A program made the translations under genes and the position numbers. The notes beneath the pieces were generated by a model. That model was not told the origin of the DNA, searched no databases, and worked only from the letters and a program-made list of their open reading frames with translations. This document shows positions 8,751 through 25,784 of a DNA stretch of 64,000 nt, piece after piece. Source of the stretch: Solirubrobacterales bacterium (lineage in GTDB: Bacteria; Actinomycetota; Thermoleophilia; Solirubrobacterales; 70-9). Every line of letters begins with the position of its first letter. The stretch's first letter is position 1. The stretch is from positions 18,814-82,813 of the forward strand of contig DASSHE010000015.1 in the NCBI GenBank assembly GCA_035693065.1. Direction: 5' to 3'.

Positions 8751-9410
8751 ATGGGACGGATCTACGACGCCACCTGGGGCCGAGCTTTCTCGGCCCTCTA
8801 TGACCGGGCCTTCGAGGCGACCGAAGAGGCCGGGCTGCGCCAGATGCGTGCCGAGCTCCTGAAGCAGGCGCGGGGGAGGGTGCTGGAGCTGGGCTCGGGC
8901 ACCGGACTCAACCTCGAGCTCTATCCGCGGGAGGGCATCGACAGCCTGGTCCTGACCGAGCCCGACCCGCACATGGCCAAGCAGCTTCGCAAGCGGGTCG
9001 ACGAGATCTGCCCCGGGGCGGAAATGCTGGAAGTGGGTGCCGAACACCTTCCCTTCGAAGCAGACAGCTTCGACACCGTCGTCGTCACGCTGGTCCTCTG
9101 CACGGTCCCCGACCAGCCGGCGGCGCTGCGGGAGATCTCCCGCGTCCTCGCCCCCGGCGGCCGGTTGCTCTTCCTGGAGCACGTCCGCGCCGGGCACGCC
9201 GACCTCGCCAAGTGGCAGGACCGCCTGGAGAGGCCATGGCGCTTCCTCGGCGACGGCTGCCACTGCAACCGCGACACCCTTGCTGGGCTGGGGGCCGCCG
9301 GCTTCGAGGTGGACGAACTCGAGCACGATCAGCTGCCGAAGGCGCCGCCGATCGTGCGGCCGCTGATTCGCGGCGTCGCCCACCAGAAGGATCAGATATC
9401 CGCTCTATAA
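8751..9410 (+). CDS. class I SAM-dependent methyltransferase
   Basis: VLELGSGTGLN (motif I), FDTVVVTLVLC, LAPGGRLLFLEH. Confidence 0.8.
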   Translation: MGRIYDATWGRAFSALYDRAFEATEEAGLRQMRAELLKQARGRVLELGSGTGLNLELYPREGIDSLVLTEPDPHMAKQLRKRVDEICPGAEMLEVGAEHLPFEADSFDTVVVTLVLCTVPDQPAALREISRVLAPGGRLLFLEHVRAGHADLAKWQDRLERPWRFLGDGCHCNRDTLAGLGAAGFEVDELEHDQLPKAPPIVRPLIRGVAHQKDQISAL

Positions 9411-9475: not shown

Positions 9476-10153
9476 ATGAAGGCACGCAGCTTGATCCCGG
9501 CGGTGGTCGCCGTTGGACTCTGCCTACTGTTGACGCCGGCCTTGGCTGCGGCCGGAGCCATCAAGGGGAAGGTGACGGCGGAGGGCAGCTCGAAGCCGAT
9601 CAGCCGGGTCGTCGTCTGCGCGACGCCGTTCGGCGGCTCCAGCTCCTGCGCGAGCACCGGGAGCCGCGGCCGCTACGCGATCTCCGGCCTCGCGGCCGGG
9701 ACCTACAAGGTCGGGTTCGACGCGATCGCGGGCGGTCTCAATTACGTCACCGAGTACTACGACAACAAACCGACCTTCGAACTCGCCCAGAAAGTCACCG
9801 TCAAGCGCAACCAGACCACCAGCGGCATCGACGCCGCGCTCGCCGTCGGCGGCCAGATCACCGGCACCGTCACCGACGAAGCGACCGCCGCGCCGCTGCA
9901 GGGCATCAGGGTCTGCGGGTTCGTGATCGGCACCGACCTCGAATCCTGCGCCCGGACCGACGGCAGTGGCGCTTACGACGTGATCGGCCTGCCGAGCGGC
10001 GATTCCTACAAAGTCGAATTCTCCGCCGCGGGTTCCGGACTCGAATACGCGACCGAGTACTACGAAAACGCGGAATCGGCCCTAGAAGGCACTTCCGTCG
10101 CGGTCACGGCGGGGGCGGTGACCGCGGGAATCAACGCCGCGCTGGCGCCCTAA
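9476..10153 (+). CDS. secreted carboxypeptidase-regulatory-like (CarboxypepD_reg) repeat protein
   Basis: Signal peptide is present. Two repeats follow the pattern G.V....(R)V(V)CA...G.Y.I.GL..G.YKV.F......Y.TEYY.N. Confidence 0.65.
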   Translation: MKARSLIPAVVAVGLCLLLTPALAAAGAIKGKVTAEGSSKPISRVVVCATPFGGSSSCASTGSRGRYAISGLAAGTYKVGFDAIAGGLNYVTEYYDNKPTFELAQKVTVKRNQTTSGIDAALAVGGQITGTVTDEATAAPLQGIRVCGFVIGTDLESCARTDGSGAYDVIGLPSGDSYKVEFSAAGSGLEYATEYYENAESALEGTSVAVTAGAVTAGINAALAP

Positions 10154-10628
10154 GGGGCGGTTTGGCCAGGTCGCCCTCCAGACCCAACGCACGATAATGG
10201 TGGTTATGTGAACTCGTGGGGGATTCTGGGAGCGTCTCGGGCATGCACACCTCGATACAGCGCCATTGACCGTTCGGCCAAGTTATTCCGCCCCATTGAA
10301 GCAGGCCCGCCTCTTGCAGGTCGTCGAGGCAGCGCCGGACGCTCTTGGCGAAGCTGCTGAAGTCGCGCGCTTTGTCGCCAGTCACCGGGTACCCCAAGCC
10401 GGCGGCGGCCTGGGTCAGCGTGGCCCGAAAACGAGTGCCTTCGGCGAACGCCTTCCGGACACACCATCGGTACGCGCGGTCCCTGCTCTCCAAGCAGTCT
10501 CGCCGGAGCGTCCGGGGCTTGATCGCCTGTAGGGCCTCCGCGACTTCCTCCAGGCTCTGCGGTCGCCAATCGGCGCCGGTAGGGCTCTTACTATTAGTTA
10601 GCCGCTCGGGGGCTGATGCACCAGCCAT
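10131..10628 (-). CDS. hypothetical element-end protein (possible winged-helix-like DNA-binding protein); ORF reads through the attL repeat into host flank
   Basis: ATG at 10628. The last ~28 codons (..SSHNHHYRALG..) are encoded by the boundary repeat and host flank. No enzymatic motif recognised. Confidence 0.45.
   Translation of the reverse strand: MAGASAPERLTNSKSPTGADWRPQSLEEVAEALQAIKPRTLRRDCLESRDRAYRWCVRKAFAEGTRFRATLTQAAAGLGYPVTGDKARDFSSFAKSVRRCLDDLQEAGLLQWGGITWPNGQWRCIEVCMPETLPESPTSSHNHHYRALGLEGDLAKPPLRAPARR
10187..10214. repeat. left boundary repeat, dif-like (attL candidate): ACGCACGATAA-TGGTGG-TTATGTGAACT
   Basis: Shares the 12-nt core TGGTGGTTATGT plus GATAA and AACT with the copy at 26557-26585. 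The ATAA-N6-TTAT inner palindrome and TTATGTnAAcT arm resemble dif XerD-side arms. Confidence 0.6.
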
Positions 10629-10693
10629 CGGGCGGCATCTTTGTGTGACCGGCGGACGGAATCGCGCCAGGGGCGTTTAGGATCGCCCGCAGT

Positions 10694-11068
10694 ATGTGGA
10701 GGCTCTTCCAATTCGGGGTAGTCGCGGTGCTCGCGGGGGCATTAGGCGTAGCCGCGGGTTTTCACCTCCAAGACTCGCAAGGGTCCTCCGGGGCCACCAC
10801 CCGTGTCCTGAGCGGGAATAACGTTGCCCAGTACATCGACGATCGCCTGGGCCTCTCCTCTTTCTCGTCCCAGGACGGCGCGATCTGCCCCGAGCACATT
10901 CCCGCGATCAAGGGCAGGGTCGTCCACTGTCAGGTCGCTTACGAAGGCCACCAGGTGGGCGCCGAAGTGAAGGTCGTCAGCAAACTTGGCCTTGTGCGCC
11001 TTGTTGGCCTCTACGGGTGGACCGGGCCCGGGTGTTGGGAATACCTCCCGTGTTATGGCCGTCCCTGA
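10694..11068 (+). CDS. membrane-anchored DUF4333-like protein
   Basis: N-terminal TM is FGVVAVLAGALGVAAGF, followed by a Cys-containing beta domain (ICPEHIPAIKGRVVHCQV...EVKVV) resembling DUF4333. Confidence 0.5.
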   Translation: MWRLFQFGVVAVLAGALGVAAGFHLQDSQGSSGATTRVLSGNNVAQYIDDRLGLSSFSSQDGAICPEHIPAIKGRVVHCQVAYEGHQVGAEVKVVSKLGLVRLVGLYGWTGPGCWEYLPCYGRP

Positions 11069-11445
11069 AACCGCGCCGCCAGCTGCACCAACACCGGCTC
11101 CCGGCCGGCGCGTAGCTCGTCGATCGCCGCCATAGCGATCGCCTTCGCGAGCTCCTGGTCCGCGGTGTTCCACTGCTCGACCCGCTGCACCCCGCCGGGC
11201 ACCGGCTCGAACGCCTCCAGGCCGCGGCCGCGGAATTCGGCCCGGACCTCGAACGTCGCCCGCGGCGCTTCGCCGCCGCCGGTCAGCGGCCGCCCCACCG
11301 TCGTCGCCCCCTCCAGCGGCACGATCTCAACCTTCCACTGCGGGTCGCCCCCCGTGATCGAGAAGATCGCCTTGCCGCGGGTGACGCTGCCGCTGTAGCC
11401 GATCCGCGGGGTTGCCGCTGGATCAGCCCTTGGAATTGAGCCCAC
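11053..11445 (-). CDS. hypothetical protein (130 aa), last gene of the leftward operon
   Basis: GTG start overlaps the preceding small ORF. Composition looks coding. No motif recognised. Confidence 0.5.
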   Translation of the reverse strand: MGSIPRADPAATPRIGYSGSVTRGKAIFSITGGDPQWKVEIVPLEGATTVGRPLTGGGEAPRATFEVRAEFRGRGLEAFEPVPGGVQRVEQWNTADQELAKAIAMAAIDELRAGREPVLVQLAARFQGRP

Positions 11446-11602
11446 GTCGTCTCCCTCCCCAGGCGTCGAGGACGCCCCGGTTGTAGTCGTTCACCCGGCG
11501 ATAGGCCGCTTCGCGTCCCCGCCAGTAAGCGAGCAGCGGGATCACCATCAGCCACAGGAGCACCCGCAGGACCATCGATTTTTCGGCCGCCCCCGGGTTC
11601 AT
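11423..11602 (-). CDS. small membrane protein (59 aa, below the ORF-track cutoff)
   Basis: My own translation: MNPGAAEKSMVLRVLLWLMVIPLLAYWRGREAAYRRVNDYNRGVLDAWGG.... The ATG overlaps the upstream stop (ATGA at 11599-11602). One TM helix. Confidence 0.45.
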   Translation of the reverse strand: MNPGAAEKSMVLRVLLWLMVIPLLAYWRGREAAYRRVNDYNRGVLDAWGGRRRGLNSKG

Positions 11603-11844
11603 CGCTTCGCCGCTTCCTTCTCCTGTTCGCCGAGCTGCTGCAGCAGGTTCACCTCGGCGGCCGCCGCCGAGTAACCGATGTAGTGCAGCTCCTGGTAGCT
11701 ATTCCCCATGTACCAGCCGGGGCCTTGCCGGACGTGCCGCGGCGGTACGTGGTAGTAGGTGACGATCTCCGGCGGCTCCGCCAGCTGCTGGGCGAGGATG
11801 CGCAGCCGGGTGCCCCGTTCGCCTAGCCCCGGCACCGACCCCAC
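11599..11844 (-). CDS. hypothetical protein (81 aa) downstream of the ATPase
   Basis: Coding-like composition. Stop is coupled to the next ORF. Confidence 0.55.
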   Translation of the reverse strand: MGSVPGLGERGTRLRILAQQLAEPPEIVTYYHVPPRHVRQGPGWYMGNSYQELHYIGYSAAAAEVNLLQQLGEQEKEAAKR

Positions 11845-11879
11845 GTCCCTTTCCTGACTGGTGCTCCCACTGCCGACCT

Positions 11880-12560
11880 CTAGGCTGGCGTCTTTCGCTC
11901 AACGATGTTCTTCCGGCGCAGGTGCTCGGGAAGCGGCTTGCAGATGATCGGCTCCGAGTAGCCCTTGCGAAACCAGATGAAGGAGTGGGGTCCGTGCTCG
12001 GCCTGGGCCTGCTGCAGCATCTCCTGCAGCTGGCCCTTGGAGACCCCGATCCCGATCCTGGCGATCGCCAGGAGCTCGTCGTCGCCCTGCGGGGGCACGA
12101 CGACAAAGACGTGCTGGACCTCGGTCTTGCCGCGCACCGGCATTTCCACCGGCCGCTGGGATCCGCCCATGAACCCACACCCCCAGGCCCCGCCCTTGGA
12201 GATGTAGGCGGAGATGTTCGGCGGGGTCCGCTGCGCGCTGAAGTTGCACAGGTCCCCCATCTCGTGGGCGCAGATTGAGATCGGCCGTTTGCGTTCCCGC
12301 GCGATCGCGAAGACCGGCTCCATCTCCATCGGGTCGTCGGTCTGCGTGACGAGGTGGATGATCGGCGCGGTCCAGTCGATCGCCTCCACCGAATGCACGG
12401 GCTCGACCCCGGGGATCCCCCACTCCCCACCCTTGGTGTCGAGCAGGATGCGCTGACACCGAAGGGTGGAGAACAGGTGGTTCAACAGCTCGGACTTACC
12501 CGAGCGCGTTTCGCCCAGCACCAGCACCCGCTGGTGGTAGAGGATGCCGCCGCCGCTCAC
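11880..12560 (-). CDS. FtsK/HerA-superfamily P-loop ATPase (candidate genome-packaging ATPase, PRD1 P9 / A32-like)
   Basis: Size is 226 aa. Walker A is VLVLGETRSGKS and a Walker B-like motif is PISICAHEMGD. The GFMGGSQRPVEMP motif parallels LVLATQRPS in the host FtsK in this same window. Confidence 0.75.
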   Translation of the reverse strand: MSGGGILYHQRVLVLGETRSGKSELLNHLFSTLRCQRILLDTKGGEWGIPGVEPVHSVEAIDWTAPIIHLVTQTDDPMEMEPVFAIARERKRPISICAHEMGDLCNFSAQRTPPNISAYISKGGAWGCGFMGGSQRPVEMPVRGKTEVQHVFVVVPPQGDDELLAIARIGIGVSKGQLQEMLQQAQAEHGPHSFIWFRKGYSEPIICKPLPEHLRRKNIVERKTPA

Positions 12561-12688
12561 TCGGCACCCTCCACCTGGGACTCCCTAATCCGGGGTGCGG
12601 TCCCGGGCTGCCGACTGGCCGGCAATTTGCGGAGGGTGTTGATCCGGCTGAGCGGCCATCCCATTCTGGCAGGGTGCGTCGGCGACAT

Positions 12689-13033
12689 TCAGCCCTCCTG
12701 CTTCGGCGCCCGGCTCTCCGGGTCGATGGTCTCGGGTTCCAGGGCGATGAAGCTCTTCCCCGGGTCTTCCTCGAGCGCGGTCTTACCCGCGTCGAGGACG
12801 TCGCCGTCGAGCTCGAAGTGGAGCTCGTCGCGCTCGCGCTCGACCTCGGCCAGGTGCTCCAGTACCGCCTCCACCCTCTGGCCTTGGCGATCGCGGATCC
12901 GCTCGGCCCGCTCCTCGGCCCGGCGGATCCTCTTCGCCGCGCGGCGTTCGCCGGCGAGGATCAGGATCCCCGCGACCGCGACCGCCAGGTAGGCCAGGGT
13001 GAACTCGCCGGGTGCCTCTCCCCCGGGCTTCAC
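12689..13033 (-). CDS. membrane-anchored coiled-coil protein (114 aa)
   Basis: GTG at 13033 overlaps the upstream stop (GTGA). TM is FTLAYLAVAVAGILILAG, followed by a charged helical region RRAEERAERIRDRQGQRVEAVLEHLAEVERERDEL. Confidence 0.5.
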   Translation of the reverse strand: MKPGGEAPGEFTLAYLAVAVAGILILAGERRAAKRIRRAEERAERIRDRQGQRVEAVLEHLAEVERERDELHFELDGDVLDAGKTALEEDPGKSFIALEPETIDPESRAPKQEG

Positions 13034-13317
13034 GCGACGCCCTCGACCTTGTACTCGTGGAGGATTTCGAGCTCGGCAAGGGCGCCCGAAAGGCAGTCGG
13101 TGATGGCTGGGTCGTCGGTGTCGCTGTAGAGGCTCAGCAGCCACCTGACGATCCCGAGCAGCTGCGCGTCGAGCTCCTCCGGCGTGTCGGGGATCAGCGC
13201 CGAGAGCATCGGCTTGGCCATCCCGAGCATCTGCAGCATCCGCGCCGTCTGCTCGTCCTCCGGCTGCACTCCCTCGGCGCCCGCGAGCGCCTGGTCCAGC
13301 TTCTCCAGTGAGTTCAT
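13030..13317 (-). CDS. acidic hypothetical protein (95 aa)
   Basis: Internal ATG (MNSLEKLDQ...) at 13317 follows an AAGGAC ribosome-binding site. The listed longer N-terminus is Arg/Pro-rich and overlaps the upstream gene. Confidence 0.55.
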   Translation of the reverse strand: MNSLEKLDQALAGAEGVQPEDEQTARMLQMLGMAKPMLSALIPDTPEELDAQLLGIVRWLLSLYSDTDDPAITDCLSGALAELEILHEYKVEGVA

Positions 13318-13330
13318 CGTGTCCTTTCGC

Positions 13331-13945
13331 TTAGCTGATCTGCCACTCGACGCCGCCCGGTTCCCCGTGGGGTCCGGGCTCCGGCGGTCCTGCGCCGGGC
13401 GGGGCCTTGACCCCGGTGATCGGCACCTCTTCCTCGGCTTGCGCTCGAAGCACTTCGGCCCGTTCCCGGGTGCTGCGCACCCCGTAGGCCCCAAGCCCCA
13501 GGGCGAGGGCTACCGGGTCGCCCATCGCCGCGGCCGCGGCCGTCGCCGGGTAGCGGTTCAAGATCCGCGTCAGCGGACCGCCGATCGCTTTGAGGTCAGC
13601 CTGCGTGTGCAGCCAGTCCTGGTCGGCGACGCCGATCGCGCCGTGGAGCAGCTGCCCCTGCACGTCCAGCAGGTCCTGCACGGTGCCCTCCTCCCAGGCG
13701 ATCTCGGGCGTAGGCAAAGCATGAATGTCAGCTTGAGGCTGAGGCTCGGGGCCTGGCGGCGCCTGCTCGGCGTCGAAGGCAGGCCCGGGCTCGGCGATGA
13801 ACGGGCTACCCAGCGGCGAGGGCGTCGCGGACGCCGTCCCAGAAGCCGCCACCGGCTCCTCCCCGGCGTTGATCGCCGCCGCCTCGCGCGGGCTCGGGGT
13901 TCCCGCCTCCGTCGTCGGCTGGTCCGGTTGGCTCGGGTCGTTCAT
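13331..13945 (-). CDS. hypothetical protein with Pro/Ala/Glu-rich N-terminus (204 aa)
   Basis: ATG (MNDPSQ...) at 13945 is preceded by GAGGAAG. The C-terminal half looks globular (VQDLLDVQGQLLHGAIGVADQDWLH...). Confidence 0.55.
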   Translation of the reverse strand: MNDPSQPDQPTTEAGTPSPREAAAINAGEEPVAASGTASATPSPLGSPFIAEPGPAFDAEQAPPGPEPQPQADIHALPTPEIAWEEGTVQDLLDVQGQLLHGAIGVADQDWLHTQADLKAIGGPLTRILNRYPATAAAAAMGDPVALALGLGAYGVRSTRERAEVLRAQAEEEVPITGVKAPPGAGPPEPGPHGEPGGVEWQIS

Positions 13946-14183
13946 CGGCTTCCTCTCGCGTCGGGGTCGGGGCGGGCGGCTCAGGCGCATCGCCGTAATC
14001 GAGAACGGTGGGTCCCTGCCCGGGCACATGCCCTGGCTCGGCCCCGCTGTGCCCGGGCACGTGCCCGGGCTCGGGGGCGGCTTTGCCAGGGCTCAGCAGT
14101 TGCTCGGCCTGCTTGCGGCGCCCGGCTGCCAGGGCTTCAAGCTGGCGCTGGCGCTTCTCGGGGTCGTTGCTGAGCCCTGGCAT
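13806..14183 (-). CDS. hypothetical first ORF of the leftward operon (125 aa), overlapping the next gene in another frame
   Basis: MPGLSNDPEKRQRQLEALAAGRRKQAEQLL... contains an EPGHVPG duplication. Its last ~140 nt overlap CDS 13331..13945, so the true extent is uncertain. Confidence 0.35.
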   Translation of the reverse strand: MPGLSNDPEKRQRQLEALAAGRRKQAEQLLSPGKAAPEPGHVPGHSGAEPGHVPGQGPTVLDYGDAPEPPAPTPTREEADERPEPTGPADDGGGNPEPARGGGDQRRGGAGGGFWDGVRDALAAG

Positions 14184-14438
14184 TGCCGGGGCATCCTGCT
14201 GTGCCCGGGTGGTCCTGGGAACCCGGGGAGACCCCTACCCACCCCTCCCCTGGTCCGGGGCCTCCCCCCGCCTCCCCATCTTCCGATACGGCCGCGCCGC
14301 CCCCAGGCTTGCCCTCTCCTCCCGGGGCGCCGCGAACCGCGACACAGCGAAAGCAGGCGCCCCGGGCACCCAACTTCCCCCCGTCGGCTCGGAAAGGACC
14401 ACGTTTTGAAGCTCGCAGGCGTCACCGCCACCCAGTTC

Positions 14439-14540
14439 ATGAAGACGGGGCTGATCGCCCTCCTCTTCATCCTCCTGTTCAAGTTCGTGGCGGCGAAGTC
14501 GAACATCGCCGGCCTGCAGAGCGTGGCGGGGGCGGTCTGA
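14439..14540 (+). CDS. small membrane protein (33 aa) immediately upstream of the capsid-protein candidate
   Basis: MKTGLIALLFILLFKFVAAKSNIAGLQSVAGAV. The stop overlaps the next ATG (TGATG at 14538-14542). Confidence 0.45.
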   Translation: MKTGLIALLFILLFKFVAAKSNIAGLQSVAGAV

Positions 14541-15823
14541 TGCGCGCCGAGCTCCTCGACAACCCCGTCAAGCGGATGCCCCAGAGCTTCCGCTTCACCG
14601 GCGAGCTCCGTGAGGCGTTCCGCGCCCGCGGCATCGACCTGGCCGACAGCGAGGCCGTCGCCGGCCTGATCGATCGCGGCCTCGGCCCGATCTCCGGCGG
14701 CGCGACCGGCATGGACGGCGCCGCCTTCATGCACAACCTCCCGCCCGAGGGCACCTTCGAAATGAACTCCGATCTGTTCTTCGCGCAGACGGAGCGAAAC
14801 GACGTGCCCCAGGGTCAGGTGGCCTTCCCCGGCCTCGGCGGTGCGCCATTCGACGTGCGGCTCTCCAACGTCGGCGTCCTGGCGAGCATCAAGATCATCT
14901 TCGAAGGCTCGCTCGTCGTCGCCGGCGGCGGCACCTGCACGGCCACCTACCAGTGGCCGTGGAACACGATGAAGCGCTTCTCGCTGTCGGCCAACGGGCA
15001 GACCTCCCTGCTCTCGGCCGAGGGCATGGACCTGCGGGCGCGCAACCAGCGGATCTACCGCAACCCGCGCGACCCCATGACCACGGCCACCCAGACCGAC
15101 GGCGTCTTCGGCGACCCCCAGGCCGGGGTGATCGCCAACGGCACCTACCCGATCCAGCTGATCTACGAGGTGCCGATCATCCACGACTGGTACACCCTGA
15201 CCGGCGCCCTGTTCGCACAGTCCGACCAGATCTACCTGGGCTGGCGCTTCACGCCGGCGGCGACCGCCGAACTGTTCACCCTCACCGGCGGCTCGACGGC
15301 GACGCTGACCGGGACGGTCAAGAGCACGACCACGTTCTTCGACGTCCCCTACGCCGACGTCCAGGGCGGGCGCAAAGTGCTGATCCCCGACCTGCAGTGG
15401 CTGCACGGGTTCGTCGGCTCGGATCTGCCTTTCGCCAACACCGGCGACGTCAAAGCGCCGTTCATCCGCACCAGCGGCGAGCTCCTGGCCTACTACTCCT
15501 ACCTCGACAACGGCGGCGCCGCGGTGATCGACCCCACGGCGCTCTCCGAGATCCGCTTCGAGTACGGAGGCAACCGCAAGCCGAGGGTCCACAACCCGCC
15601 GACCACGCTCCTCGACAAGAACGTCAAGGACTACAACGGCCGCATCCTGCCCAAAGCCGGCTACTCGGTCTTCGACTTCGAGTCCGACAACCCGAGCCGC
15701 GACCTGGTCTTCCCGAAGGGGGTGACGGAGCTGCAGACGGTGTTCGGGATCCCCGCGGGGACGACGATCAACGCCAACGCTCACGTCCACTTCGTGGAGG
15801 AGGCCCTGTTCGCAGGGCGCTGA
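14540..15823 (+). CDS. candidate double jelly-roll major capsid protein (PRD1 P3-like), 427 aa
   Basis: Internal ATG of listed ORF 14183..15823. No TM segments and beta-rich. Motifs FDVRLSNVGV, YEVPIIHDWYTLTGALFAQ, YSYLDNGGAAV and LPKAGYSVFDFESDNP run collinear (offset of roughly 40-50 residues) with PRD1 P3 FDVTPANVGI, YWVPLAYSETDLTGAVLAN, FDNGGS and FPKGVYYCDNRDKP, as recalled from memory. Confidence 0.65.
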   Translation: MRAELLDNPVKRMPQSFRFTGELREAFRARGIDLADSEAVAGLIDRGLGPISGGATGMDGAAFMHNLPPEGTFEMNSDLFFAQTERNDVPQGQVAFPGLGGAPFDVRLSNVGVLASIKIIFEGSLVVAGGGTCTATYQWPWNTMKRFSLSANGQTSLLSAEGMDLRARNQRIYRNPRDPMTTATQTDGVFGDPQAGVIANGTYPIQLIYEVPIIHDWYTLTGALFAQSDQIYLGWRFTPAATAELFTLTGGSTATLTGTVKSTTTFFDVPYADVQGGRKVLIPDLQWLHGFVGSDLPFANTGDVKAPFIRTSGELLAYYSYLDNGGAAVIDPTALSEIRFEYGGNRKPRVHNPPTTLLDKNVKDYNGRILPKAGYSVFDFESDNPSRDLVFPKGVTELQTVFGIPAGTTINANAHVHFVEEALFAGR

Positions 15824-15824
15824 G

Positions 15825-16232
15825 ATGGCGACCGGCAGAGCAACGGGTCGCGGCGGCGGCGTCCTCTCAGAGGCCGACGTCCGCGGCGGCGGCGAAATGG
15901 AGTGGGGCAACCTGATCGGCATCCACCCCGACCACCCGCTGGTAGCGGGCTCGGGGCCGGGCTCCTACTCGGGGGCGATCGTCAACGAGAACAGCCGGAT
16001 CGTCACCACCCCGGCCGGGCTGGCCGGGCCGGCGGGCGGCGTGATCGCGACGCCCGAAGGGGTCAGCCTGCGTCACCTCGACGACTGGCGCGACGTCTTC
16101 AACTTCAAAGGAAGCCCGGCGCCCTGGCTGCTGCTGGTGATCCTCGGCGTCGTCTTCTTCGCCCACGCCTCGGTGCGGGCTCGAGCCGGCGCCTTCGGCA
16201 AGAGCGCGAGCGCCCGCGCGGCCTTCGGCTAG
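15825..16232 (+). CDS. virion-module protein with C-terminal TM anchor (135 aa)
   Basis: Starts 2 nt after the capsid-candidate stop. C-terminal TM is PWLLLVILGVVFFAHA. Confidence 0.6.
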   Translation: MATGRATGRGGGVLSEADVRGGGEMEWGNLIGIHPDHPLVAGSGPGSYSGAIVNENSRIVTTPAGLAGPAGGVIATPEGVSLRHLDDWRDVFNFKGSPAPWLLLVILGVVFFAHASVRARAGAFGKSASARAAFG

Positions 16233-16240
16233 GGGGTCGC

Positions 16241-16366
16241 GTGGAAGCGCTCGCCCAGCTGCTGATCGGGATCGGGTTCATCGCGATCTTCATCAACTAC
16301 ATGAAGAACGGCCCCGAGGGCGTCAAGACCTGGTGGCGCGCGAAGTTCAAGGGGCAGACGGCCTGA
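16241..16366 (+). CDS. small membrane protein (41 aa)
   Basis: GTG follows AGGGGG. VEALAQLLIGIGFIAIFINYMKNGPEGVKTWWRAKFKGQTA. The stop overlaps the next ATG. Confidence 0.5.
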   Translation: MEALAQLLIGIGFIAIFINYMKNGPEGVKTWWRAKFKGQTA

Positions 16367-16473
16367 TGGCGGTCGGGATACTCCTCGCGCTGGTCGGCTT
16401 CTGGGTCGTCATGCGCACGGTCAACCGCGACTCCAGCGGCAGGACGCTGGTGAATCGGATTCTGCCCGCATGA
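16366..16473 (+). CDS. small membrane protein (35 aa)
   Basis: MAVGILLALVGFWVVMRTVNRDSSGRTLVNRILPA. Overlapping stop/start codons on both sides (TGATG upstream at 16364-16368, ATGA downstream at 16470-16473). Confidence 0.5.
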   Translation: MAVGILLALVGFWVVMRTVNRDSSGRTLVNRILPA

Positions 16474-17258
16474 CCGTCGTCGACCAGGCGGAGAACGTGG
16501 GCGGCGTCGTCTCGGCCGCGCGCCTGCGCGAGAGCTTCATGCGCCGCCGGGCGAACGCCTCCAACGAGGAGGAGCGCGAGGCCCTGGGCGACGCGATCGG
16601 CACGATCGAGGTCCGCTTCCCCGAGCTCGAGGACCTGCCCGCCGGCGGCGCCGAGCGCTTCGCCCGCGAGCGCGGCCACGGCAAAGGCGCCCGCAGCCCC
16701 AGCCACGAGGGCCGACAGCGCCACCGCCCGCCGGTCAAGCAGAAGCCGAAAGCGAAAGCCAAACCGCGGCCCAAGGCCGGGGGCGGTAAGACCGCGAGCT
16801 CGACGAAGCGCAGCCAGAGCTCCCGCACCAGTGCCCGCCGCTCCACGCGGGTCGAAGACCGGATCCGCAGCCGCGGCCGCCGCGCCTACACCGAAACCGG
16901 GATCCCCGCCGCCGGCGCCTCGGTCTCGCGGATCGCGATGAGCGCCCTCGGCGCCACCGTCGGCCTCGCGGCGGTCTACCTGCTGCTGACCTCGGCCGAG
17001 CGCCACGCCGGCAAGGAACCACCGCTGCTCGGTCTCCTGGTCGCCGTGACCGGCTTCCTGCGGCGGATCGTCGCGCCCGTTGACTTCTTCGGCCCCCAGA
17101 TGACGCAGCTGAACTACGCCAAGGCGATCGCCAACCCGACCGAAGCGGCCGCGATCGCCGTCAAGCACCCCACCAAGCTCCAGCCGCTTGGGGTGAAGCC
17201 GGCCGAGATCGGCATCTCCCCCACCCCCCGCCCCCGCGTCACTCACAAGAGGAGGTGA
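16470..17258 (+). CDS. membrane protein with Lys/Arg-rich central region (262 aa)
   Basis: Basic tract is KQKPKAKAKPRPKAGGGK. Two TM helices: IAMSALGATVGLAAVYLLL and LLGLLVAVTGFL. Confidence 0.65.
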   Translation: MTVVDQAENVGGVVSAARLRESFMRRRANASNEEEREALGDAIGTIEVRFPELEDLPAGGAERFARERGHGKGARSPSHEGRQRHRPPVKQKPKAKAKPRPKAGGGKTASSTKRSQSSRTSARRSTRVEDRIRSRGRRAYTETGIPAAGASVSRIAMSALGATVGLAAVYLLLTSAERHAGKEPPLLGLLVAVTGFLRRIVAPVDFFGPQMTQLNYAKAIANPTEAAAIAVKHPTKLQPLGVKPAEIGISPTPRPRVTHKRR

Positions 17259-17262
17259 CACC

Positions 17263-17414
17263 TTGAAGACCATCACCAAAGAGCTCGTCGGCATGACCGT
17301 GCTGCTCGTCCTGGCCTACCTGGTGCTCGTTCACTTCACGGGCTTTTCCCGTGATGTCGGAGCGCTCGGCTCGGCCTGGGTCAACGTCACGAAGACTTTC
17401 CAGGGCCGCGGGTA
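17263..17414 (+). CDS. small membrane protein (50 aa)
   Basis: TTG start follows AGGAGG. LKTITKELVGMTVLLVLAYLVLVHFTGFSRDVG.... Confidence 0.5.
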
Positions 17415-17421
17415 GGAATCG

Positions 17422-17823
17422 ATGCCCCCGCTCCAGCACCGCCATCCCTCGCGCGGCAGCCTCGCCCGCCGGCCGGCCTCTGCCCGGCAGGCCCAGGCGA
17501 TGCTGCCGCCGCCCCCTCCGGGGCCGAACCTCGGCGCCTTCGCCCAGCTCGGCGAGCTCCCGCAGGACGTCGTCGGGGCGGTCGTCGGGCAGCTGCGCAC
17601 CTCGCTGCTAGACGGGGCGACGGCGCTGCGCCTCGCCGGCCGCGGCCGCCAGCGCTACTTCGGCACCGAGATGCCGAGCCCGCAGCGGTTCACCGCACCC
17701 GCCAACGCCAACGACGAGGACTCGATCCGCGCCGGCGTCCGCTTCGCCGGCAACGCGCGGCGCACGGAGGGCAAGAACGCGAGCCGCGGCCTGCGCAGGG
17801 TCTCCCCGGGAGTGATGATCTAG
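17422..17823 (+). CDS. hypothetical virion-module protein (133 aa)
   Basis: ATG ORF abutting the next gene (stop 17821-17823, next ATG at 17824). No TM and no recognised motif. Confidence 0.5.
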   Translation: MPPLQHRHPSRGSLARRPASARQAQAMLPPPPPGPNLGAFAQLGELPQDVVGAVVGQLRTSLLDGATALRLAGRGRQRYFGTEMPSPQRFTAPANANDEDSIRAGVRFAGNARRTEGKNASRGLRRVSPGVMI

Positions 17824-18462
17824 ATGGCTGAGGCACCCGCCACCGGCAAGGGCCCGCTGAAGAAGCTGACGCCCAAACAGAAGCGCTACGCGATGGTCCT
17901 CGGCGCCGCCGCGGTCCTCGCGCTGATCTACCTGCTGCAGCGCCGCTCGGCGGCCCCCGCAGAAGGACAGAGCCCCAGCACCGCCGAAAGCGCCGGCGCC
18001 GGCTCCCCTTCCTACCCGGTCAGCGGTGGCGGCGGGACCGACCCCAGCGCCTTCATCGGCGCCCAGAGCGAACAGATCGGCAGCGCCCTGGGCGAAGTCA
18101 GCAGCGGGCTCGGTGAAGTCAGCGGCGGCCTCGGCGAAGTGATCGGCAGCAACGACCGGCTCGGCGTCCAGGTGGAAACCAACCTCGACGAAATCGGCGA
18201 AGCCCAGGCCCGGACGCTCGCGGCGCTCGGCAAGCAGGGCAAGAACATCACCGCTATCCGCAAAAAGCTCGCGAAGCCGCCGCGGCCGGTCAAAGGCAAG
18301 CCGGGGTCCGGCAAGCCCCATTCCAAGGCGCAGCCTCCCAAGCCGACGAAGGGCAAGCCGGGCTCCGGCAAGCCCCATTCAAAGCCTCAGCCTCCCAAGC
18401 CACAGCCGAGACCCAACCCCAGACCGCCGGCGCCAAAGGCGCCCAAGAAGAAAGGCAAGTAG
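17824..18462 (+). CDS. membrane-anchored repeat protein (212 aa)
   Basis: N-terminal TM is AMVLGAAAVLALIYLL. GEVS mini-repeats are followed by two 19-aa repeats KGKPGSGKPHSK(A/P)QPPKP and a Pro/Lys-rich tail. Confidence 0.65.
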   Translation: MAEAPATGKGPLKKLTPKQKRYAMVLGAAAVLALIYLLQRRSAAPAEGQSPSTAESAGAGSPSYPVSGGGGTDPSAFIGAQSEQIGSALGEVSSGLGEVSGGLGEVIGSNDRLGVQVETNLDEIGEAQARTLAALGKQGKNITAIRKKLAKPPRPVKGKPGSGKPHSKAQPPKPTKGKPGSGKPHSKPQPPKPQPRPNPRPPAPKAPKKKGK

Positions 18463-18963
18463 ATGAGTGAGGAAGCACAGATTTTCAACCAGGCGACCCA
18501 GCCGGCCGCCCCCGCACAGCAGACGGTGACGGCGACGCCGCCGGTGCAGCCGCCGGTCCAGATGCCGGCCGAGATCACTCCGCAGGCACCATCCGCGGCC
18601 GCCGAGGAAATGCCCGAGGAGTGGCCGGTCAAGGGCTACGCGGGTCCCCAGCCCTGGGAGGTCTCGCGGCCGCCGGCGCTCGCGCATGACCGCCGTCTCC
18701 TGATCTCCGGCTCCGCCGGCGACGAGGTCTTGGAGCTCTGCGCCTGCCTCGGCCGGCTCGGCTACGAAACCTCGGTCTCCCGCGGCGAGAACGCCCTCGC
18801 GGTATTCGGCGCCGCCGAGCGCACCGCGGTCGAGCGCTTCCGCGCCGACTACGGCGTGCAGGAGGACCCGGCGATCATCAGCGCCACGACCCCCGACGCC
18901 GTCGGGCCGTGGACCTGGGAGGCGCTTTTCCGCCTCGTCAACCGGGTCGAAGGAGGCGAGTAG
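18463..18963 (+). CDS. protein with C-terminal peptidoglycan-binding-like domain
   Basis: GDEVLELCACLGRLGY...FGAAERTAVERFRADYGVQEDPAI...VGPWTWEAL follows the PG_binding_1 pattern (G..V..LQ..L..LGY...FG..T..AV..FQ...G...DG.VG..T...L). Confidence 0.55.
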   Translation: MSEEAQIFNQATQPAAPAQQTVTATPPVQPPVQMPAEITPQAPSAAAEEMPEEWPVKGYAGPQPWEVSRPPALAHDRRLLISGSAGDEVLELCACLGRLGYETSVSRGENALAVFGAAERTAVERFRADYGVQEDPAIISATTPDAVGPWTWEALFRLVNRVEGGE

Positions 18964-18967
18964 GCGG

Positions 18968-19240
18968 ATGGACCGGCTGCCCGGGCCTCAGTTCAGCCCC
19001 CACGACCTCGCGCCGTGGTGGGCTGAGCCGAGCATGGACACCGACCGGCCGGTAGCGGTCGGTCGGGCCATGCCCGCATCGCACTTCCCCCTGCCCGGGT
19101 GGCCGGCCGCCTCGACCGTCGACTACCTGACCAAACTGATCCTGCTGGGGCTGCTGCTGCTGGCGCTGCCCTACCTGATCGGCAAGGCCCTGACCAGCCC
19201 CGGCACGGTGCTGGCGGTCGCTGGACGGGCGGCCAAGTGA
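18968..19240 (+). CDS. small membrane protein (90 aa)
   Basis: TM is LILLGLLLLALPYLI. The stop overlaps the next GTG (GTGA). Confidence 0.55.
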   Translation: MDRLPGPQFSPHDLAPWWAEPSMDTDRPVAVGRAMPASHFPLPGWPAASTVDYLTKLILLGLLLLALPYLIGKALTSPGTVLAVAGRAAK

Positions 19241-19809
19241 GCGTCCTCAGCGACGTCCAAATCGCCTGGTACATGCTCCGCGCGGGCTTCCCCGCGGACC
19301 CGCGGGTCCTGGCCGAAGGGATCGGCGTTGTGCGCGCCGAGAGCGGCGGCAACCCCAAGTCAGAGGTCCCCGGCAACGAACACATCGGGATGTGGGCTGA
19401 GTCCTCGGCCTTCGGGACCCGCGGCGAGCGCCTGGACCCGCTCGCCGCGACCAAAGCCGCCTACAAGCAGTGGCTCGCCGACGGCAAGAGCTTCTGGTCG
19501 GCCTGGGGCCGCTGGGAGTCCGAACAGGCCGGCCGCGACGGCGCGACCACCTGGCACGCCCACCTGGGAGCGGCGCGGCAGGCGCTCGCCGGATTCGGCT
19601 CCGCGCCGGGCTCGGGCGCCAGCACTCCCAAGAGCGCCTTCCGGCGGCCGGCGGCCGGCGAAGAAGGCAGCGGCGGACCCTCGGGATTCCTCGTCTTCCT
19701 GGTGAACGGCGTCCTGATCCTCGGTGGCGTCGCCCTGATGGCGTTCGGCGGTATGCGCGCGGTCGGCGCCGGCGGCGGTAAGACCGGGCTCGAGGGAGCG
19801 GCCGCGTGA
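19237..19809 (+). CDS. lytic-transglycosylase-like protein with C-terminal TM anchor
   Basis: GTG at 19237. GIGVVRAESGGNPKSEV...GMWAES resembles the lysozyme-like/SLT catalytic Glu-Ser region. C-terminal TM is FLVFLVNGVLILGGVALMAF. The architecture parallels PRD1 P7. Confidence 0.6.
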   Translation: MSVLSDVQIAWYMLRAGFPADPRVLAEGIGVVRAESGGNPKSEVPGNEHIGMWAESSAFGTRGERLDPLAATKAAYKQWLADGKSFWSAWGRWESEQAGRDGATTWHAHLGAARQALAGFGSAPGSGASTPKSAFRRPAAGEEGSGGPSGFLVFLVNGVLILGGVALMAFGGMRAVGAGGGKTGLEGAAA

Positions 19810-20558
19810 CTAGCTACGTCTACCCATTCGCATCCGGTGCTACTACGGGGCGCATTGATCAGGGTCAGGACTTCGGCGGCACTGGTCCGATCTACGCGAT
19901 CGGTAACGCGAGGATCACCAGCCTCGGTGCCCCGGGTTGGCCAGGCGGTCGCGGCATCCTCTACCAGCTGCTCGATGGCTCGCGTCGGGGTCAGTACGTC
20001 TTCGTCTACGAGGGGGTGCGCCCAAGCGTGCGGGTTGGACAGGTGGTGGGGGCCGGCCAGAGGATCGGATCGCTGATCCCGGGTAGCTCCACCGGAATCG
20101 AGATTGGCTTTGCCGACGCCAACGGCGTTCCCCTCTCCCACAGCGAATACACCGAGGGCAAGGAAACCGTCCGCGGTAAGGAAATGGCGCGATTTCTGGC
20201 TCACCTGAAGGCTGGTGGCGGAAAGACCGACTATGGCGGTGGTCCGATCGGATTCGCCAAGCAGTTCGTATTCGGTGATCCCCTCGAAGCCCTAGGGATC
20301 GGGTCGGGTCAGGGCCTCAAGCAGGACATCCTTGGGGTGGGGGGCCAAGCTGCGTCCACGGTCGGCGCCCAGGTGGTCGAATACATCGGAGGTCTCCTCG
20401 GCGAGAAGGCCGCGCCGATCCTCCTGACCATCGCCCTGGTCGTCGGCGGGGCCTTCCTCATCTACTTCGGCCTGGCCCGGGCAGTGGGGGTAGCGCAGCC
20501 CGTCGCCACCCCGCTCCGCGCCGTCCGCGCGGGCGCAATCGCGGGAGCCGCGGCATGA
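19806..20558 (+). CDS. M23/LytM-like beta-domain protein with C-terminal TM segments
   Basis: GRIDQGQDFGG..PIYAIGNARI...VRVGQVVGAGQRIGSL...GIEIGFA follows the M23 fold pattern. I could not see the canonical HxxxD/HxH zinc ligands. TM is ILLTIALVVGGAFLIYF. Confidence 0.55.
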   Translation: MTSYVYPFASGATTGRIDQGQDFGGTGPIYAIGNARITSLGAPGWPGGRGILYQLLDGSRRGQYVFVYEGVRPSVRVGQVVGAGQRIGSLIPGSSTGIEIGFADANGVPLSHSEYTEGKETVRGKEMARFLAHLKAGGGKTDYGGGPIGFAKQFVFGDPLEALGIGSGQGLKQDILGVGGQAASTVGAQVVEYIGGLLGEKAAPILLTIALVVGGAFLIYFGLARAVGVAQPVATPLRAVRAGAIAGAAA

Positions 20559-20977
20559 ACGATCGCCTGCCCCAACACCCCGACGACCCGACCGCAGCCA
20601 AGCTCGCCCGCATCGAGCAGCTGCTCGCCGACATGCGAGCCGAGCAGTGCCGCGGCAACGCGCCAGCGCAGCTGCACGCGATCACCTTCGAAGGCGCCGC
20701 CAAGAAGTACATCCGCCGCAGCGAGCACCCGCCCGCGGCGCTGTCGATCGGGATCGTCAACCCCGTCGAACTGAGCATCTACGTCGGCCTCTCCGGCGAG
20801 CGGGCCGCGCCGAACAGCCGCGCCTTCGTCGTGCCGCCGAAGTCGGCGATGGTCGTCCCGGTCGCCGTGGACAAGTTCGAGCTCGGCGTGGATCCCACCG
20901 TCCTGGGCGAAGAATCGGCGACGATCTTCCTGCTGCGCTTCGACACGGTGCAGCCGTTCTTCCTGGGGTCGATGTGA
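20555..20977 (+). CDS. small beta-rich protein (140 aa), penton/vertex candidate
   Basis: N-terminal helix followed by ~100 aa of alternating hydrophobic strands (ALSIGIVNPVELSIYVGL...MVVPVAVDKFELGV...IFLLRF). Size fits single jelly-roll penton proteins. Weak inference. Confidence 0.4.
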   Translation: MNDRLPQHPDDPTAAKLARIEQLLADMRAEQCRGNAPAQLHAITFEGAAKKYIRRSEHPPAALSIGIVNPVELSIYVGLSGERAAPNSRAFVVPPKSAMVVPVAVDKFELGVDPTVLGEESATIFLLRFDTVQPFFLGSM

Positions 20978-21672
20978 GCGATCTCGCGAGCTGGAGCTCG
21001 GCGCCGGCGGCTCCCACCCTCGCCACGATCTTCGTCGGCGACGGCAGCACCAACAACGTCAAACAGTTCGTCGAAGAACAGGCGCCGGCCGAACGGATCA
21101 AAGTCGTTGAGGAAGTCGTCGGCAAAGGCGCCCTGGTGCTGCAGTTCGAAGTGCGCGAAGGCGACCCCGAAATCGCCGCCGGCCACCGCTCCGAGCTCGT
21201 CTCCGGAAAGACCTTCCGCCACGGCGACCACCTCTTCTTCGGCTTCGGCGTCAAGCGCGAAGAAGGCGACAACACCCCGGGGCACTGGCAGATGTTCTTC
21301 CAGTTGCACGACCAGAGCGGGGGCTCGCCGCCGCTGTGCCTGCAGTACTTCAAATCCGGCGGCAAGGTCTGGGCGTGGCTCGGCTCGGGCGACGGCACCA
21401 AGGAATACTGGGAAGGCGAAGTCGGCGAAGAAGGCAAAGCCTGGGTCGACCTGCTGATCCGCCTCAAGGTTGGCACCACCGACGGTGAAATCGAAGTGTG
21501 GCGGGACAAGGTCCTGCAGAAGCTGATCGGCGGGGGCACGGTCAAGCGCGGCCAGAACACCGAGGGCGTCGCGCCGCTCTACGACAAGATCGGCATCTAC
21601 CGCACCGGCGCCTCGGTCGGCACCACCAAAACCCGGATGCGTAACTACTTCATCGCCAGGGTGCTGCCGTGA
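20974..21672 (+). CDS. polysaccharide-lyase-like / ConA-like jelly-roll protein (spike or receptor-binding/depolymerase candidate)
   Basis: GTG at 20974 (GTGA overlap). HRSELVSGKTF..GDHLFFGF...WQMFFQLHD...PPLCLQY...WVDLLIRLKVGTTDGEIEVWRD...LYDKIGIYR matches the Polysacc_lyase (PF14099-type) pattern. Confidence 0.55.
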   Translation: MSDLASWSSAPAAPTLATIFVGDGSTNNVKQFVEEQAPAERIKVVEEVVGKGALVLQFEVREGDPEIAAGHRSELVSGKTFRHGDHLFFGFGVKREEGDNTPGHWQMFFQLHDQSGGSPPLCLQYFKSGGKVWAWLGSGDGTKEYWEGEVGEEGKAWVDLLIRLKVGTTDGEIEVWRDKVLQKLIGGGTVKRGQNTEGVAPLYDKIGIYRTGASVGTTKTRMRNYFIARVLP

Positions 21673-21992
21673 GCGCCGCCATGAACAACGTCCAGGCGCC
21701 GGACACCTACACCACCGCGGCGACCCTCACCTGCCCCGGCACCGCCCGGGTGCGGCTGCAGATCAACAACCAGGCGATCTACTGGCAGCGCGGCTACAGC
21801 TCCCCCGGCGGCGGCGGGATCGAATGGCAGCCCGAAGAGATGCTGCTGCCGATCACCGCGAGCCTCGACGAGCGCTGCGACGCGATCCGCATCCGCGCCG
21901 CGGTGCCGTTGGCCAAACTCCCGGCCGGCTCCGAACAGGCCCGGGTGACTATCGGCACCCGTACCGCCGCCGAGATCGGCGAAGCGGCATGA
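21669..21992 (+). CDS. small beta-rich hypothetical protein (107 aa)
   Basis: GTGA-coupled start and ATGA-coupled stop. No recognised motif. Confidence 0.5.
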   Translation: MSAAMNNVQAPDTYTTAATLTCPGTARVRLQINNQAIYWQRGYSSPGGGGIEWQPEEMLLPITASLDERCDAIRIRAAVPLAKLPAGSEQARVTIGTRTAAEIGEAA

Positions 21993-22690: not shown

Positions 22691-22872
22691 CCGGGCAGCC
22701 ACCGGCCGAGCCCGCCGCGGCCGACGGGATCCTGATCAGCCTCCAGCGCGACGGCGACCAGGTGCAGCTTGACGTCACCAGCCTGGGCGACGTCCGCGTC
22801 ACCGAGCTCCCAGCGCTCCTCGGCCTCGCCCGCAAGCTCTCCGAAGACCGCCTCGGCATCGGGAGGGGGTGA
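22672..22872 (+). CDS. hypothetical protein (66 aa)
   Basis: ORF overlaps the previous stop by 19 nt. Acidic. Confidence 0.4.
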   Translation: MDGDRLAGQPPAEPAAADGILISLQRDGDQVQLDVTSLGDVRVTELPALLGLARKLSEDRLGIGRG

Positions 22873-22877
22873 GTCAA

Positions 22878-22970
22878 GTGAAGCCCAAGGGCCACAAGAA
22901 GTCCTGCCCCTGCCCCGTCTGCCGCAAGAGCCGGCGCCGCCGCAAGAGCCGTCGTCGCCGCAAGCGCTGA
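22878..22970 (+). CDS. 30-aa Arg/Lys-rich peptide with CPCPVC motif
   Basis: GTG follows GGGAGGGGG. VKPKGHKKSCPCPVCRKSRRRRKSRRRRKR. Below the ORF-track cutoff, my own translation. Confidence 0.35.
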   Translation: MKPKGHKKSCPCPVCRKSRRRRKSRRRRKR

Positions 22971-23025
22971 CCCCGTACTCGAGTCGAGTCTTACCGCCGT
23001 CGACCACGGCGCCGAAAGGAAGCAA

Positions 23026-23984: not shown

Positions 23985-23988
23985 GCCG

Positions 23989-24254: not shown

Positions 24255-24293
24255 GCGGCCTTCGAGCGGTGCCCGCTGGTGATCCGTCGCGGG

Positions 24294-25780: not shown

Positions 25781-25784
25781 GCGA

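Follow-up and report, generated by a model that had tools for sequence, protein, structure and literature searches.

An insert of about 16.4 kb in the stretch of Solirubrobacterales DNA analysed here (64 kb, hereafter the window) lies inside the dif site of its host and, as is well supported by sequence comparison, is probably an IMEX (integrative mobile element exploiting Xer). The initial annotation had proposed integration by XerC/D hijacking (IMEX-type), and this reading is supported by a conserved, syntenic dif, by the viral character of the insert, by the lack of a detectable recombinase and by the restoration of an open reading frame (ORF) when the two ends are joined. On none of the three grounds that the annotation had named for rejecting it did a result go against it: no recombinase was recognised in the element, the repeats recur at orthologous insertions, and no better dif was detected elsewhere in the window. 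We infer, with a probability of roughly 80%, that the host XerC and XerD integrate this phage. Coordinates of the features are summarized in Table 1.

Sites bounding the insert

The left site (attL) was exactly as the initial annotation had read it. The sequence given for the right site (attR) was also correct, and its start was displaced by one base (26558, not 26557). Both sites contain the 12-nt core TGGTGGTTATGT in identical form, as claimed, and attR has the reported 7-nt spacing on the XerC side, caused by an extra C between GATAA and TGGTGG. The dif sequences quoted there for E. coli and B. subtilis agree with the supplementary table of Kono et al. 2011.

When both strands of the 64 kb were searched with the 17-mer pattern TGGTGGTTATGTSAACT (up to 3 mismatches), just attL and attR were matched, and 100 dinucleotide-preserving shuffles gave 0 matches. 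The generic pattern GATAAN{6,7}TTATGTNAAC also matched attL and attR in the window, with 0 matches expected. No third dif-like site, no tRNA gene and no Rfam family was detected in the window.

The flank upstream of attL (..agaccc-AACGCACGATAA) together with the XerC arm of attL is of the host type, as in the dif loci of related hosts. Past attR, the sequence (TTATGTCAACT-CAGC.., then dsbA) is likewise of the host type, and the sequences to the right of attL and to the left of attR are those of the phage. Judged from these flanks, both sites are hybrids: attL combines a host XerC arm with a phage XerD arm, and attR a phage XerC-like arm with a host XerD arm. The earlier view of one functional dif and one hybrid site holds for the canonical appearance of attL but not for the number of hybrids. 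The canonical look of attL stems from its phage XerD arm, which matches a naturally occurring dif variant; the attL 28-mer is the dif of 14 species among the matches listed. From the assignment of the arms and the empty sites described below, the original dif is therefore reconstructed as AACGCACGATAA-TGGTGG-TTATGTCAACT, and exactly this sequence adjoins dsbA in the related locus L003. The phage site attP is reconstructed from the sequences as GCGCAGATAAC-TGGTGG-TTATGTGAACT. The crossover point may lie anywhere within the common 12-nt core. The insert splits dif by 16,371 bp, counted from the start of attL to the start of attR.

Table 1 Coordinates of the att sites, prophage genes and neighbouring host genes in the window.
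Feature	Position	Strand	Remarks
Methyltransferase gene, host left flank	8751-9410	+	Kept beside the XerC arm of dif in relatives
CarboxypepD_reg gene, host left flank	9476-10153	+	Unique to this genome
5' half of the split gene, winged-helix-like B domain	10131-10628	-	Reads through attL and ends in host DNA
attL, canonical-looking dif	10187-10214	+	ACGCACGATAA-TGGTGG-TTATGTGAACT
attL, XerC arm	10187-10197		ACGCACGATAA, host-derived
attL, central region	10198-10203		TGGTGG
attL, 12-nt core	10198-10209		Identical to the core in attR
attL, XerD arm	10204-10214		TTATGTGAACT, phage-derived
Prophage body	10215-26556		Colinear with stand-alone contigs L003/L004, L005 and L008
Putative genome-packaging ATPase	11880-12560	-	Walker A G-x-T-x-SGKSE, Walker B hhhhHE
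Major capsid protein, 427 aa, double jelly-roll	14540-15823	+	AF2 and Foldseek
M23-peptidase-like ORF, late gene, weak	19806-20558	+	tblastn homology to an L003 region with a PF01551-weak ORF
Polysaccharide-lyase-domain protein, late gene	domain within 20647-21672	+	PF14099, E 6e-18
Ribbon-helix-helix protein, leftward block beside attR	24429-24635	-	PF01402, E 1e-7
Conserved ORF, leftward block beside attR	24632-25006	-	Homologues in L001 and L003
Conserved ORF, leftward block beside attR	24993-25322	-	Homologues in L001 and L003
Conserved ORF (A1), leftward block beside attR	25319-25780	-	Homologues in L001 and L003
3' half of the split gene, basic linker and A2 domain	25785-26556	-	Called ORF 25785-26429; joining the ends puts it in frame with B
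attR, aberrant site	26558-26585 (26557 including the full phage arm)	+	GCGCAGATAAC-TGGTGG-TTATGTCAACT
attR, phage XerC-like arm	26557-26567		CGCGCAGATAA
attR, extra base	26568		C
attR, central region	26569-26574		TGGTGG
attR, 12-nt core	26569-26580		Identical to the core in attL
attR, host XerD arm	26575-26585		TTATGTCAACT
dsbA-like thioredoxin and VKOR gene, host right flank	26590-28870	-	Kept beside the XerD arm of dif
Host FtsK, alpha, motor and gamma domains	48107-51100	-	PF01580, PF17854, PF09397

A conserved, probable dif site in Solirubrobacterales

We scanned a single representative genome for each species with the 18-mer AACGCACGATAATGGTGG (XerC arm and core). Carriers of the site include the closed chromosomes OY970377.1, OY969702.1, OY970339.1 and OY970268.1. 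The 18-mer occurred in at least 119 genome stretches, nearly all labelled Solirubrobacterales or Thermoleophilia, and the full sequence AACGCACGATAA-TGGTGG-TTATGT[C/A/G]nAC[T/C] was present in at least 110 Solirubrobacterales species genomes; as the 18-mer was itself the search pattern, the conservation of those 18 letters is partly circular. A TTATGT XerD arm followed in 112 of the 121 tabulated occurrences among the matches listed, two IMG/VR contigs being included in the 121. Among these listed matches the arm was TTATGTCAACT (61 occurrences), TTATGTAAACC (18), TTATGTGAACT (14), TTATGTCTACT (8), TTATGTCAACC (6), TTATGTGAACC (3), TTATGTAGACC (1) or TTATGTCTACC (1). The sequence on either side varied among occurrences, and the site itself was strictly conserved.

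The site has a single syntenic position, with a methyltransferase gene on one side and dsbA-VKOR on the other, the two being convergent. Among the matches listed, homologues of the window's methyltransferase gene lie on the XerC side and are co-oriented in 85 loci, and dsbA homologues lie on the XerD side in the opposite orientation in all of 106 loci, at a median distance of 50 bp (4 bp past attR in the window). Clean empty sites, with the same host flanks around a single dif, were found in 61 related loci among the matches listed. Each 8-kb block contained one site, except the IMEX-bearing block L024; this count also refers to the matches listed, from which the second known copy in OY970377.1 is absent.

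Published predictions for actinobacterial dif follow nnnnCCGATAA-nnnnnn-TTATGTCAA(G/C)T, as in Frankia alni (CACGCCGATAATGCACATTATGTCAAGT) and M. smegmatis (AGTACCGATAAGCTACATTATGTCAACT) (Kono et al. 2011, PMC3025954). The present site has the 11-6-11 layout with both arms matching published actinobacterial dif. Its XerD arm TTATGTCAACT is identical at 11 of 11 positions to that of M. smegmatis, Micrococcus luteus and Salinispora tropica, and its inner XerC arm CGATAA corresponds to the consensus CCGATAA, with A replacing the C before CGATAA. The central TGGTGG departs from the Actinomycetia consensus. In a PWM made from 32 published Actinomycetia dif sites, attL scored 12.6 bits, compared with 36-54 bits for the training sites and at most 10.3 bits for shuffles; within the window it led the next match by 20 bits. 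Most of the shortfall comes from the unusual, lineage-specific central region, which the Actinomycetia matrix penalises too heavily, and the identification therefore leans on comparative genomics. Genes point towards the site from both sides, the + strand carrying 76% of the coding sequence left of the insert and the - strand 83% of that on its right, as expected at a replication terminus. No GC-skew switch was seen at the site within the window (-0.012 on the left, -0.001 on the right, cumulative skew without an extremum).

The identification of the repeated sequence as the dif site of the host lineage is well supported by these comparisons. We consider it very unlikely that the 28-bp sequence is another conserved intergenic element beside dsbA, of a regulatory or termination type, which served as a convenient attB while the true dif lies elsewhere. 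The flat GC skew, the low PWM score and the departures from the Actinomycetia consensus (TGGTGG and the A before CGATAA) would fit such an element. They are countered by the 11-6-11 layout with both arms matching dif, including a XerD arm identical to those of several Actinomycetia, by strict conservation of the site amid variable flanks, by the convergence of genes on it, and by its use as a target by two unrelated kinds of element, double jelly-roll (DJR) and Zot-type (see below).

The window also encodes the host FtsK with its gamma domain, and one report (PMC3130261) describes the gamma domain of E. coli FtsK as activating XerD at dif. Genes for XerC and XerD were found neither in the 64-kb window (Pfam, 20 host ORFs) nor within 8 kb of dif in 119 loci. 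A tblastn search with E. coli XerD gave no match in the window, in any related phage genome or in the 119 dif neighbourhoods, 137 loci having been searched beside the window.

The insert as a tailless virus

On the strength of its modelled capsid protein, we regard the insert as a temperate tailless virus with a PRD1-like DJR capsid. The major capsid protein (MCP) is 100% identical to P0001, an NCBI MAG protein, and its AlphaFold model has a pLDDT of 85.4. Foldseek matched the model to P3 of PRD1/PR772 (E 5e-20, TM 0.65-0.75), STIV (5e-15) and PM2 (2e-9), and, among viral models, to Gluconobacter phage GC1 (E 7e-21) and Bacillus phage Wip1 (E 1e-18). Compared with tectivirus capsids, it shows 14-17% identity at a TM of about 0.7. 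Pfam gave a weak match to the PRD1 capsid family (PF09018, Phage_Capsid_P3_N). More than 225 MCP homologues were found, many on contigs of 15.9-18.9 kb and a few flagged PF09018; tblastn against the INPHARED phage reference collection returned no match.

The candidate packaging ATPase is kept in all relatives, and its Walker A and B motifs are conserved. Its best PDB profile match, the STIV2 B204 packaging NTPase, is weak (E=0.11), as is a match to a PHROG terminase. Two late genes putatively act on the cell envelope, as suggested by the polysaccharide lyase domain of one and the M23-peptidase-like character of the other; PF01551 is weak in homologues and reaches E 0.03 in one element ORF. The remainder of the body consists mostly of small ORFs that match no family, and for more than 20 ORFs of the element no function could be detected. 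Relatives occur as stand-alone contigs of 16,227 bp (L004), 17,237 bp (L005) and 16,309 bp (L008). No DNA polymerase family was matched by any element ORF in the six-frame Pfam search, and no inverted terminal repeats were present in the related full contig L008. We infer that the genome is circular when free.

A phage gene split by the insertion

When the element was circularised in silico at the att core (26568 joined to 10198), a single ORF of 404 aa was formed, consisting of the B domain, a basic linker encoded partly by attP, and the A2 domain. In the more distant relatives L008, L002 and L133-L136, single genes of 333-396 aa can be aligned with this ORF over its full length. These relatives keep B-A2 unsplit and have no dif-like site; in L005, only a partial dif mimic is present (around 1465-1494). 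The linker motif RRRPHRAASTARRIFF is common to the window and to the equivalent reconstruction of prophage L001. As joining the ends at the core restores a gene that is unsplit in relatives, attP lies inside a coding sequence. The ends of the element were once joined at the att core, and the restoration of the ORF is independent proof of this.

The conserved end of B reads ...QWRCIEVCMP. Its AF2 model (pLDDT 76) is a small winged-helix-like fold with only weak structure matches, and the B-A2 fusion has no relative among Pfam or PDB profiles. Twelve B homologues were found in the database, of about 92-173 aa (11 of them 117-173 aa), and all 12 read directly into dif. An alignment of 10 of them shows translated dif after the B domain in every case, with three frames and both orientations represented.

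That the element is an inert remnant, its two sites being a chance or duplicated motif unrelated to the arrival of the DNA, deserves almost no credence. Neither IMG/VR nor the JGI metagenomes contained an exact match to the free attP or attR predicted here (CAGATAACTGGTGGTTATGT), so the free-form junction of this exact phage was not found there, and a profile of the end gene also had no match in IMG/VR. Against a remnant stand the zero chance expectation of the repeats, the intact and colinear gene set, the restoration of the ORF exactly at the common core, and the 61 empty sites in relatives among the matches listed.

Other elements at the same site

The initial annotation had asked whether the repeats recur at orthologous insertions, and they do. 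In the closed 2.85-Mb chromosome OY970377.1 (L001), AACGCACGATAATGGTGG stands at either end of a related prophage: on the left it runs on into agaagtcg..., and on the right it is part of a full dif with dsbA beside it. The attP of L001 therefore consists of the XerC arm and core only. L003, L004 and L130-L132 end at the same site. In L003/L004, the same phage genes flank an att site of the opposite orientation, and the prophage is flipped with respect to dsbA; contig L004 (16.2 kb) begins exactly at CCACCATTATCGTGCGTT. In L130-L132, B is followed by the full dif.

Elements encoding a Zot-family ATPase (PF05707) follow the 18-mer in L024 (E 2.5e-16) and L129 (E 1e-14), and from this gene content we regard them as inovirus-like. 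In L024 the element spans about 7 kb, with the 18-mer at one end and a full dif at the other. No integrase turned up in the DJR element or in those of its relatives that are sequenced; the scan covered part of the Zot elements.

Recombinase searches and catalysis of integration

The initial annotation had found no recombinase in the element, and more sensitive searches gave the same result. No Pfam recombinase or transposase of the tyrosine, serine, DDE or HUH type was matched in 90 six-frame ORFs of at least 70 aa (E<=0.05), the matched families being Polysacc_lyase, DUF4333, Phage_Capsid_P3_N and three marginal ones. PHROGs returned no integrase for 10 selected ORFs, the tblastn search with XerD was likewise negative, and homologues of RstR/P16 and XafT/P15 (DUF3653) were not detected in the element. 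A 316-aa ORF beside attR (25319-26269) was considered as a hidden integrase and rejected, as its N-terminal two thirds is an out-of-frame artefact over the real genes A1 (25319-25780) and A2.

With no detectable integrase and an insertion inside dif, the virus thus very probably uses host recombinases. We regard as improbable the alternative that the phage encodes a recombinase of its own that has escaped recognition, either the B-A2 protein of about 400 aa or another ORF, and uses dif as attB with Xer not being the catalyst. The position of attP in or beside the B-A2 gene, the usual place of integrase genes, would suit this alternative, as would the many element ORFs without family assignment and the failure to find xerC/xerD in the window or at the dif loci. 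However, the six-frame ORFs matched none of the tyrosine recombinase, serine recombinase, DDE and HUH families, the B domain is modelled as a small winged-helix-like fold and not as a catalytic one, and distant relatives keep B-A2 without a dif-like site. Moreover, the attP variants mimic a full dif or the XerC arm and core, as in the dif-type phages of Vibrio (PMC12715192), and the unrelated Zot-type elements use the same site.

Proposed mechanism and significance

In integration by the host enzymes, XerC and XerD (presumed to be present), which normally resolve dimers at dif, would pair attP with dif, and strands would be exchanged where the arms meet TGGTGG, the central region that the two sites have in common. 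Having the canonical 11-6-11 layout, attL would leave the host with a working dimer-resolution site, as we deduce from its identity to a natural dif. The divergent phage XerC arm and the one extra base should make attR hard for Xer to recombine, and the prophage would be more stable as a result. With attP inside the phage gene of about 400 aa, integration separates the N-terminal winged-helix-like half, at the left end, from the C-terminal half, at the right end.

Tentatively, Xer-mediated insertion might also act as a genetic switch, an integration-dependent immunity circuit run wholly by host recombinases, although we hold this to be doubtful. In this reading, attP sits in the linker of the conserved phage protein, with the winged-helix-like DNA-binding domain on its N-terminal side and the A2 domain on its C-terminal side. 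Insertion would then yield a shortened DNA-binding protein that ends in a short stretch encoded by the host and is parted from its C-terminal domain. The split could silence replication or lytic functions or create a prophage repressor, and excision would restore the full-length gene. The att site could also be re-set within the B-A2 linker, whether in one orientation or the other and in each of the three reading frames. An attP placed within a gene gives a testable route by which lysogeny could be switched without a phage integrase.

Several consequences follow from the proposed reading. It defines dif for the Solirubrobacterales, an abundant and mostly uncultured soil order, and provides a landmark for the terminus and for the limits of mobile elements in MAGs. 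Hijacking of Xer by tailless phages of the capsid-membrane type would be extended from Proteobacteria to Actinomycetota. The occurrence of DJR phages and Zot-type elements together at one dif, as in Vibrio, suggests that the strategy is ancient or has been reinvented repeatedly. Finally, the MCP homologues, none of them in the phage reference collection, point to a numerous and so far unannotated phage group with genomes of 16-17 kb, tectivirus-like capsids and no polymerase.

Comparison with known systems

Xer hijacking has so far been described mainly in Vibrio and other proteobacteria, and a literature search returned no description of IMEXs or DJR phages in Solirubrobacterales. CTXphi, VGJphi and TLCphi of Vibrio cholerae reportedly exploit XerC/XerD and dif. 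The attP of the L001 type, with a XerC arm, an identical central region and no XerD arm, resembles that of TLCphi; compared with these V. cholerae paradigms, two arms are present in the attP of the window type, and its central region is homologous throughout. Unlike these filamentous ssDNA phages or satellites, the present element is predicted to be a dsDNA icosahedral virus, its XerC-side arm is shifted by one base (7-nt spacing), and no XafT (DUF3653) homologue was detected in it.

The mycobacteriophages BPs and Brujita are said to have integration-dependent immunity, with attP in a regulatory gene whose product is truncated on integration. The present element likewise has attP inside a phage gene that is truncated by integration. 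BPs and Brujita have their own tyrosine integrase and a tRNA attB, whereas no integrase was detected here.

The closest parallel is seen in the dif-type, PM2-like IMEX prophages of Vibrio, which are also tailless DJR temperate phages, of up to 16 kb and without an integrase, at the chromosomal dif (PMC12715192, PMC11630473, PMC9966536). Their attP may be full, left-armed or right-armed dif-like (PMC12715192). In both systems, attP mimics a full or one-armed dif, one junction regenerates a canonical dif, and the target site is also occupied by inoviruses or, here, inovirus-like elements. The present case differs in its host (Actinomycetota, Solirubrobacterales), in an MCP nearer to tectivirus P3 than to PM2 P2 (E 5e-20 vs 2e-9), in lacking detectable homologues of the end genes RstR/P16 and XafT/P15, and in an attP located inside a coding sequence that is split by integration.

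Rhodobacter phage Jorvik is a membrane-containing DJR phage with no predicted integrase, and its attP and attB resemble dif (PMC10589892), all of which recalls the present element. However, the attB of Jorvik lies in the RuBisCO operon and varies among hosts (PMC10589892), whereas a conserved, syntenic dif is used here.

In capsid fold, the element is closest to Tectiviridae (PRD1, Bam35/Wip1, GC1 and the Toil group; PMC5894146), of which the Toil group is an actinobacterial precedent. Yutin et al. 2018 reported actinobacterial Toil-group proviruses with Xer unmentioned (PMC5894146). Unlike Tectiviridae, which have linear genomes, this element appears to integrate as an opened circle at dif; it has no protein-primed family-B polymerase, and the related contig L008 has no inverted terminal repeats. 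What sets the element apart from the known cases is the host phylum, a tectivirus-like capsid without polymerase or inverted terminal repeats, the absence of detectable RstR/XafT, and an attP inside a gene that is split by integration.

Orientation of the att site and dif mimics in related phages

We compared the att regions of the window prophage and of the closely related prophages at loci L003 and L001 (see the table). These phages share the genes that flank the att site, relative to which the site itself is inverted in place; the prophages therefore lie in opposite chromosomal orientations. At L001, the entire att-bearing module was additionally inverted with respect to the structural genes.

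The stand-alone relative L005 (17.2 kb; major capsid protein identity, 83%) lacks the B-A2 gene and carries an intergenic partial dif mimic, ACAACGCAGGCCTC-TGGTCG-TTATGTAAACC, whose XerD arm (TTATGTAAACC) is identical to the dif variant of 18 species. As this mimic overlaps a hairpin, its status as attP is uncertain.

Two dif-like sites separated by 1.7 kb were found on L009. At one of them, non-dif sequence follows the XerC arm and core; the other was AAACGCTTCGATAATGGTGGTTATGTGAACC, and a solitary TTATGTAAACC was also present on this contig. The arrangement resembles an array made up of IMEX junctions or remnants. On L139, TGGTGG-TTATGTGAACT, a possible right-armed dif mimic belonging to another element, was detected with no recognizable XerC arm upstream.

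Coordinates of the analyzed features
Feature	Location	Strand	Remark
att region compared	window 10187-10663
att region compared	L003:5971-6441
att region compared	L001:19688-20157
Partial dif mimic	L005:1465-1494
dif-like site pair	L009:1370-3135		IMG/VR contig, 25.9 kb
TGGTGG-TTATGTGAACT	L139:7912-7928		IMG/VR viral contig, 117.9 kb, 67% G+C
CarboxypepD_reg/SdrD-B-domain gene	window 9476-10153	+	directly left of attL, XerC side of dif
Cys-rich ORF	window 39911-41143	-	410 aa, signal-peptide-like start
Inverted repeat	window 43437-43472 / 43533-43568		between miaB and next gene
recA	window 44238-45341	-
FtsK	window 48107-51100	-	alpha, motor and gamma domains
Zot-type element	L024:211-7287		PF05707, E 2.5e-16
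Zot-type element	L129:1156-6237		PF05707, E 1e-14

Host features around dif

Homologues of the CarboxypepD_reg/SdrD-B-domain gene were found in none of the 119 syntenic loci (dif neighbourhoods of relatives), and this gene may be cargo from an earlier element at dif. The FtsK and recA genes are located 18-24 kb from dif, and their neighbours include cinA, miaB, dapA/dapB, ribF and a DinB-like polymerase gene (390-1484). The kilobase holding the Cys-rich ORF has a G+C content of just 59%, compared to ~70% window-wide; the ORF may be a recent acquisition. The two 36-nt arms of the inverted repeat are 86% complementary and enclose a 60-nt loop; the repeat matched none of the Rfam families.

Zot-encoding elements at dif

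The dif of other Solirubrobacterales genomes is also occupied by elements carrying a gene for a Zot-family assembly ATPase (PF05707). The 18-bp XerC arm plus core flanks the element at L024, which is ~7 kb in size. Together with that at L129, this element looks like an inovirus-like IMEX, here in Actinomycetota.
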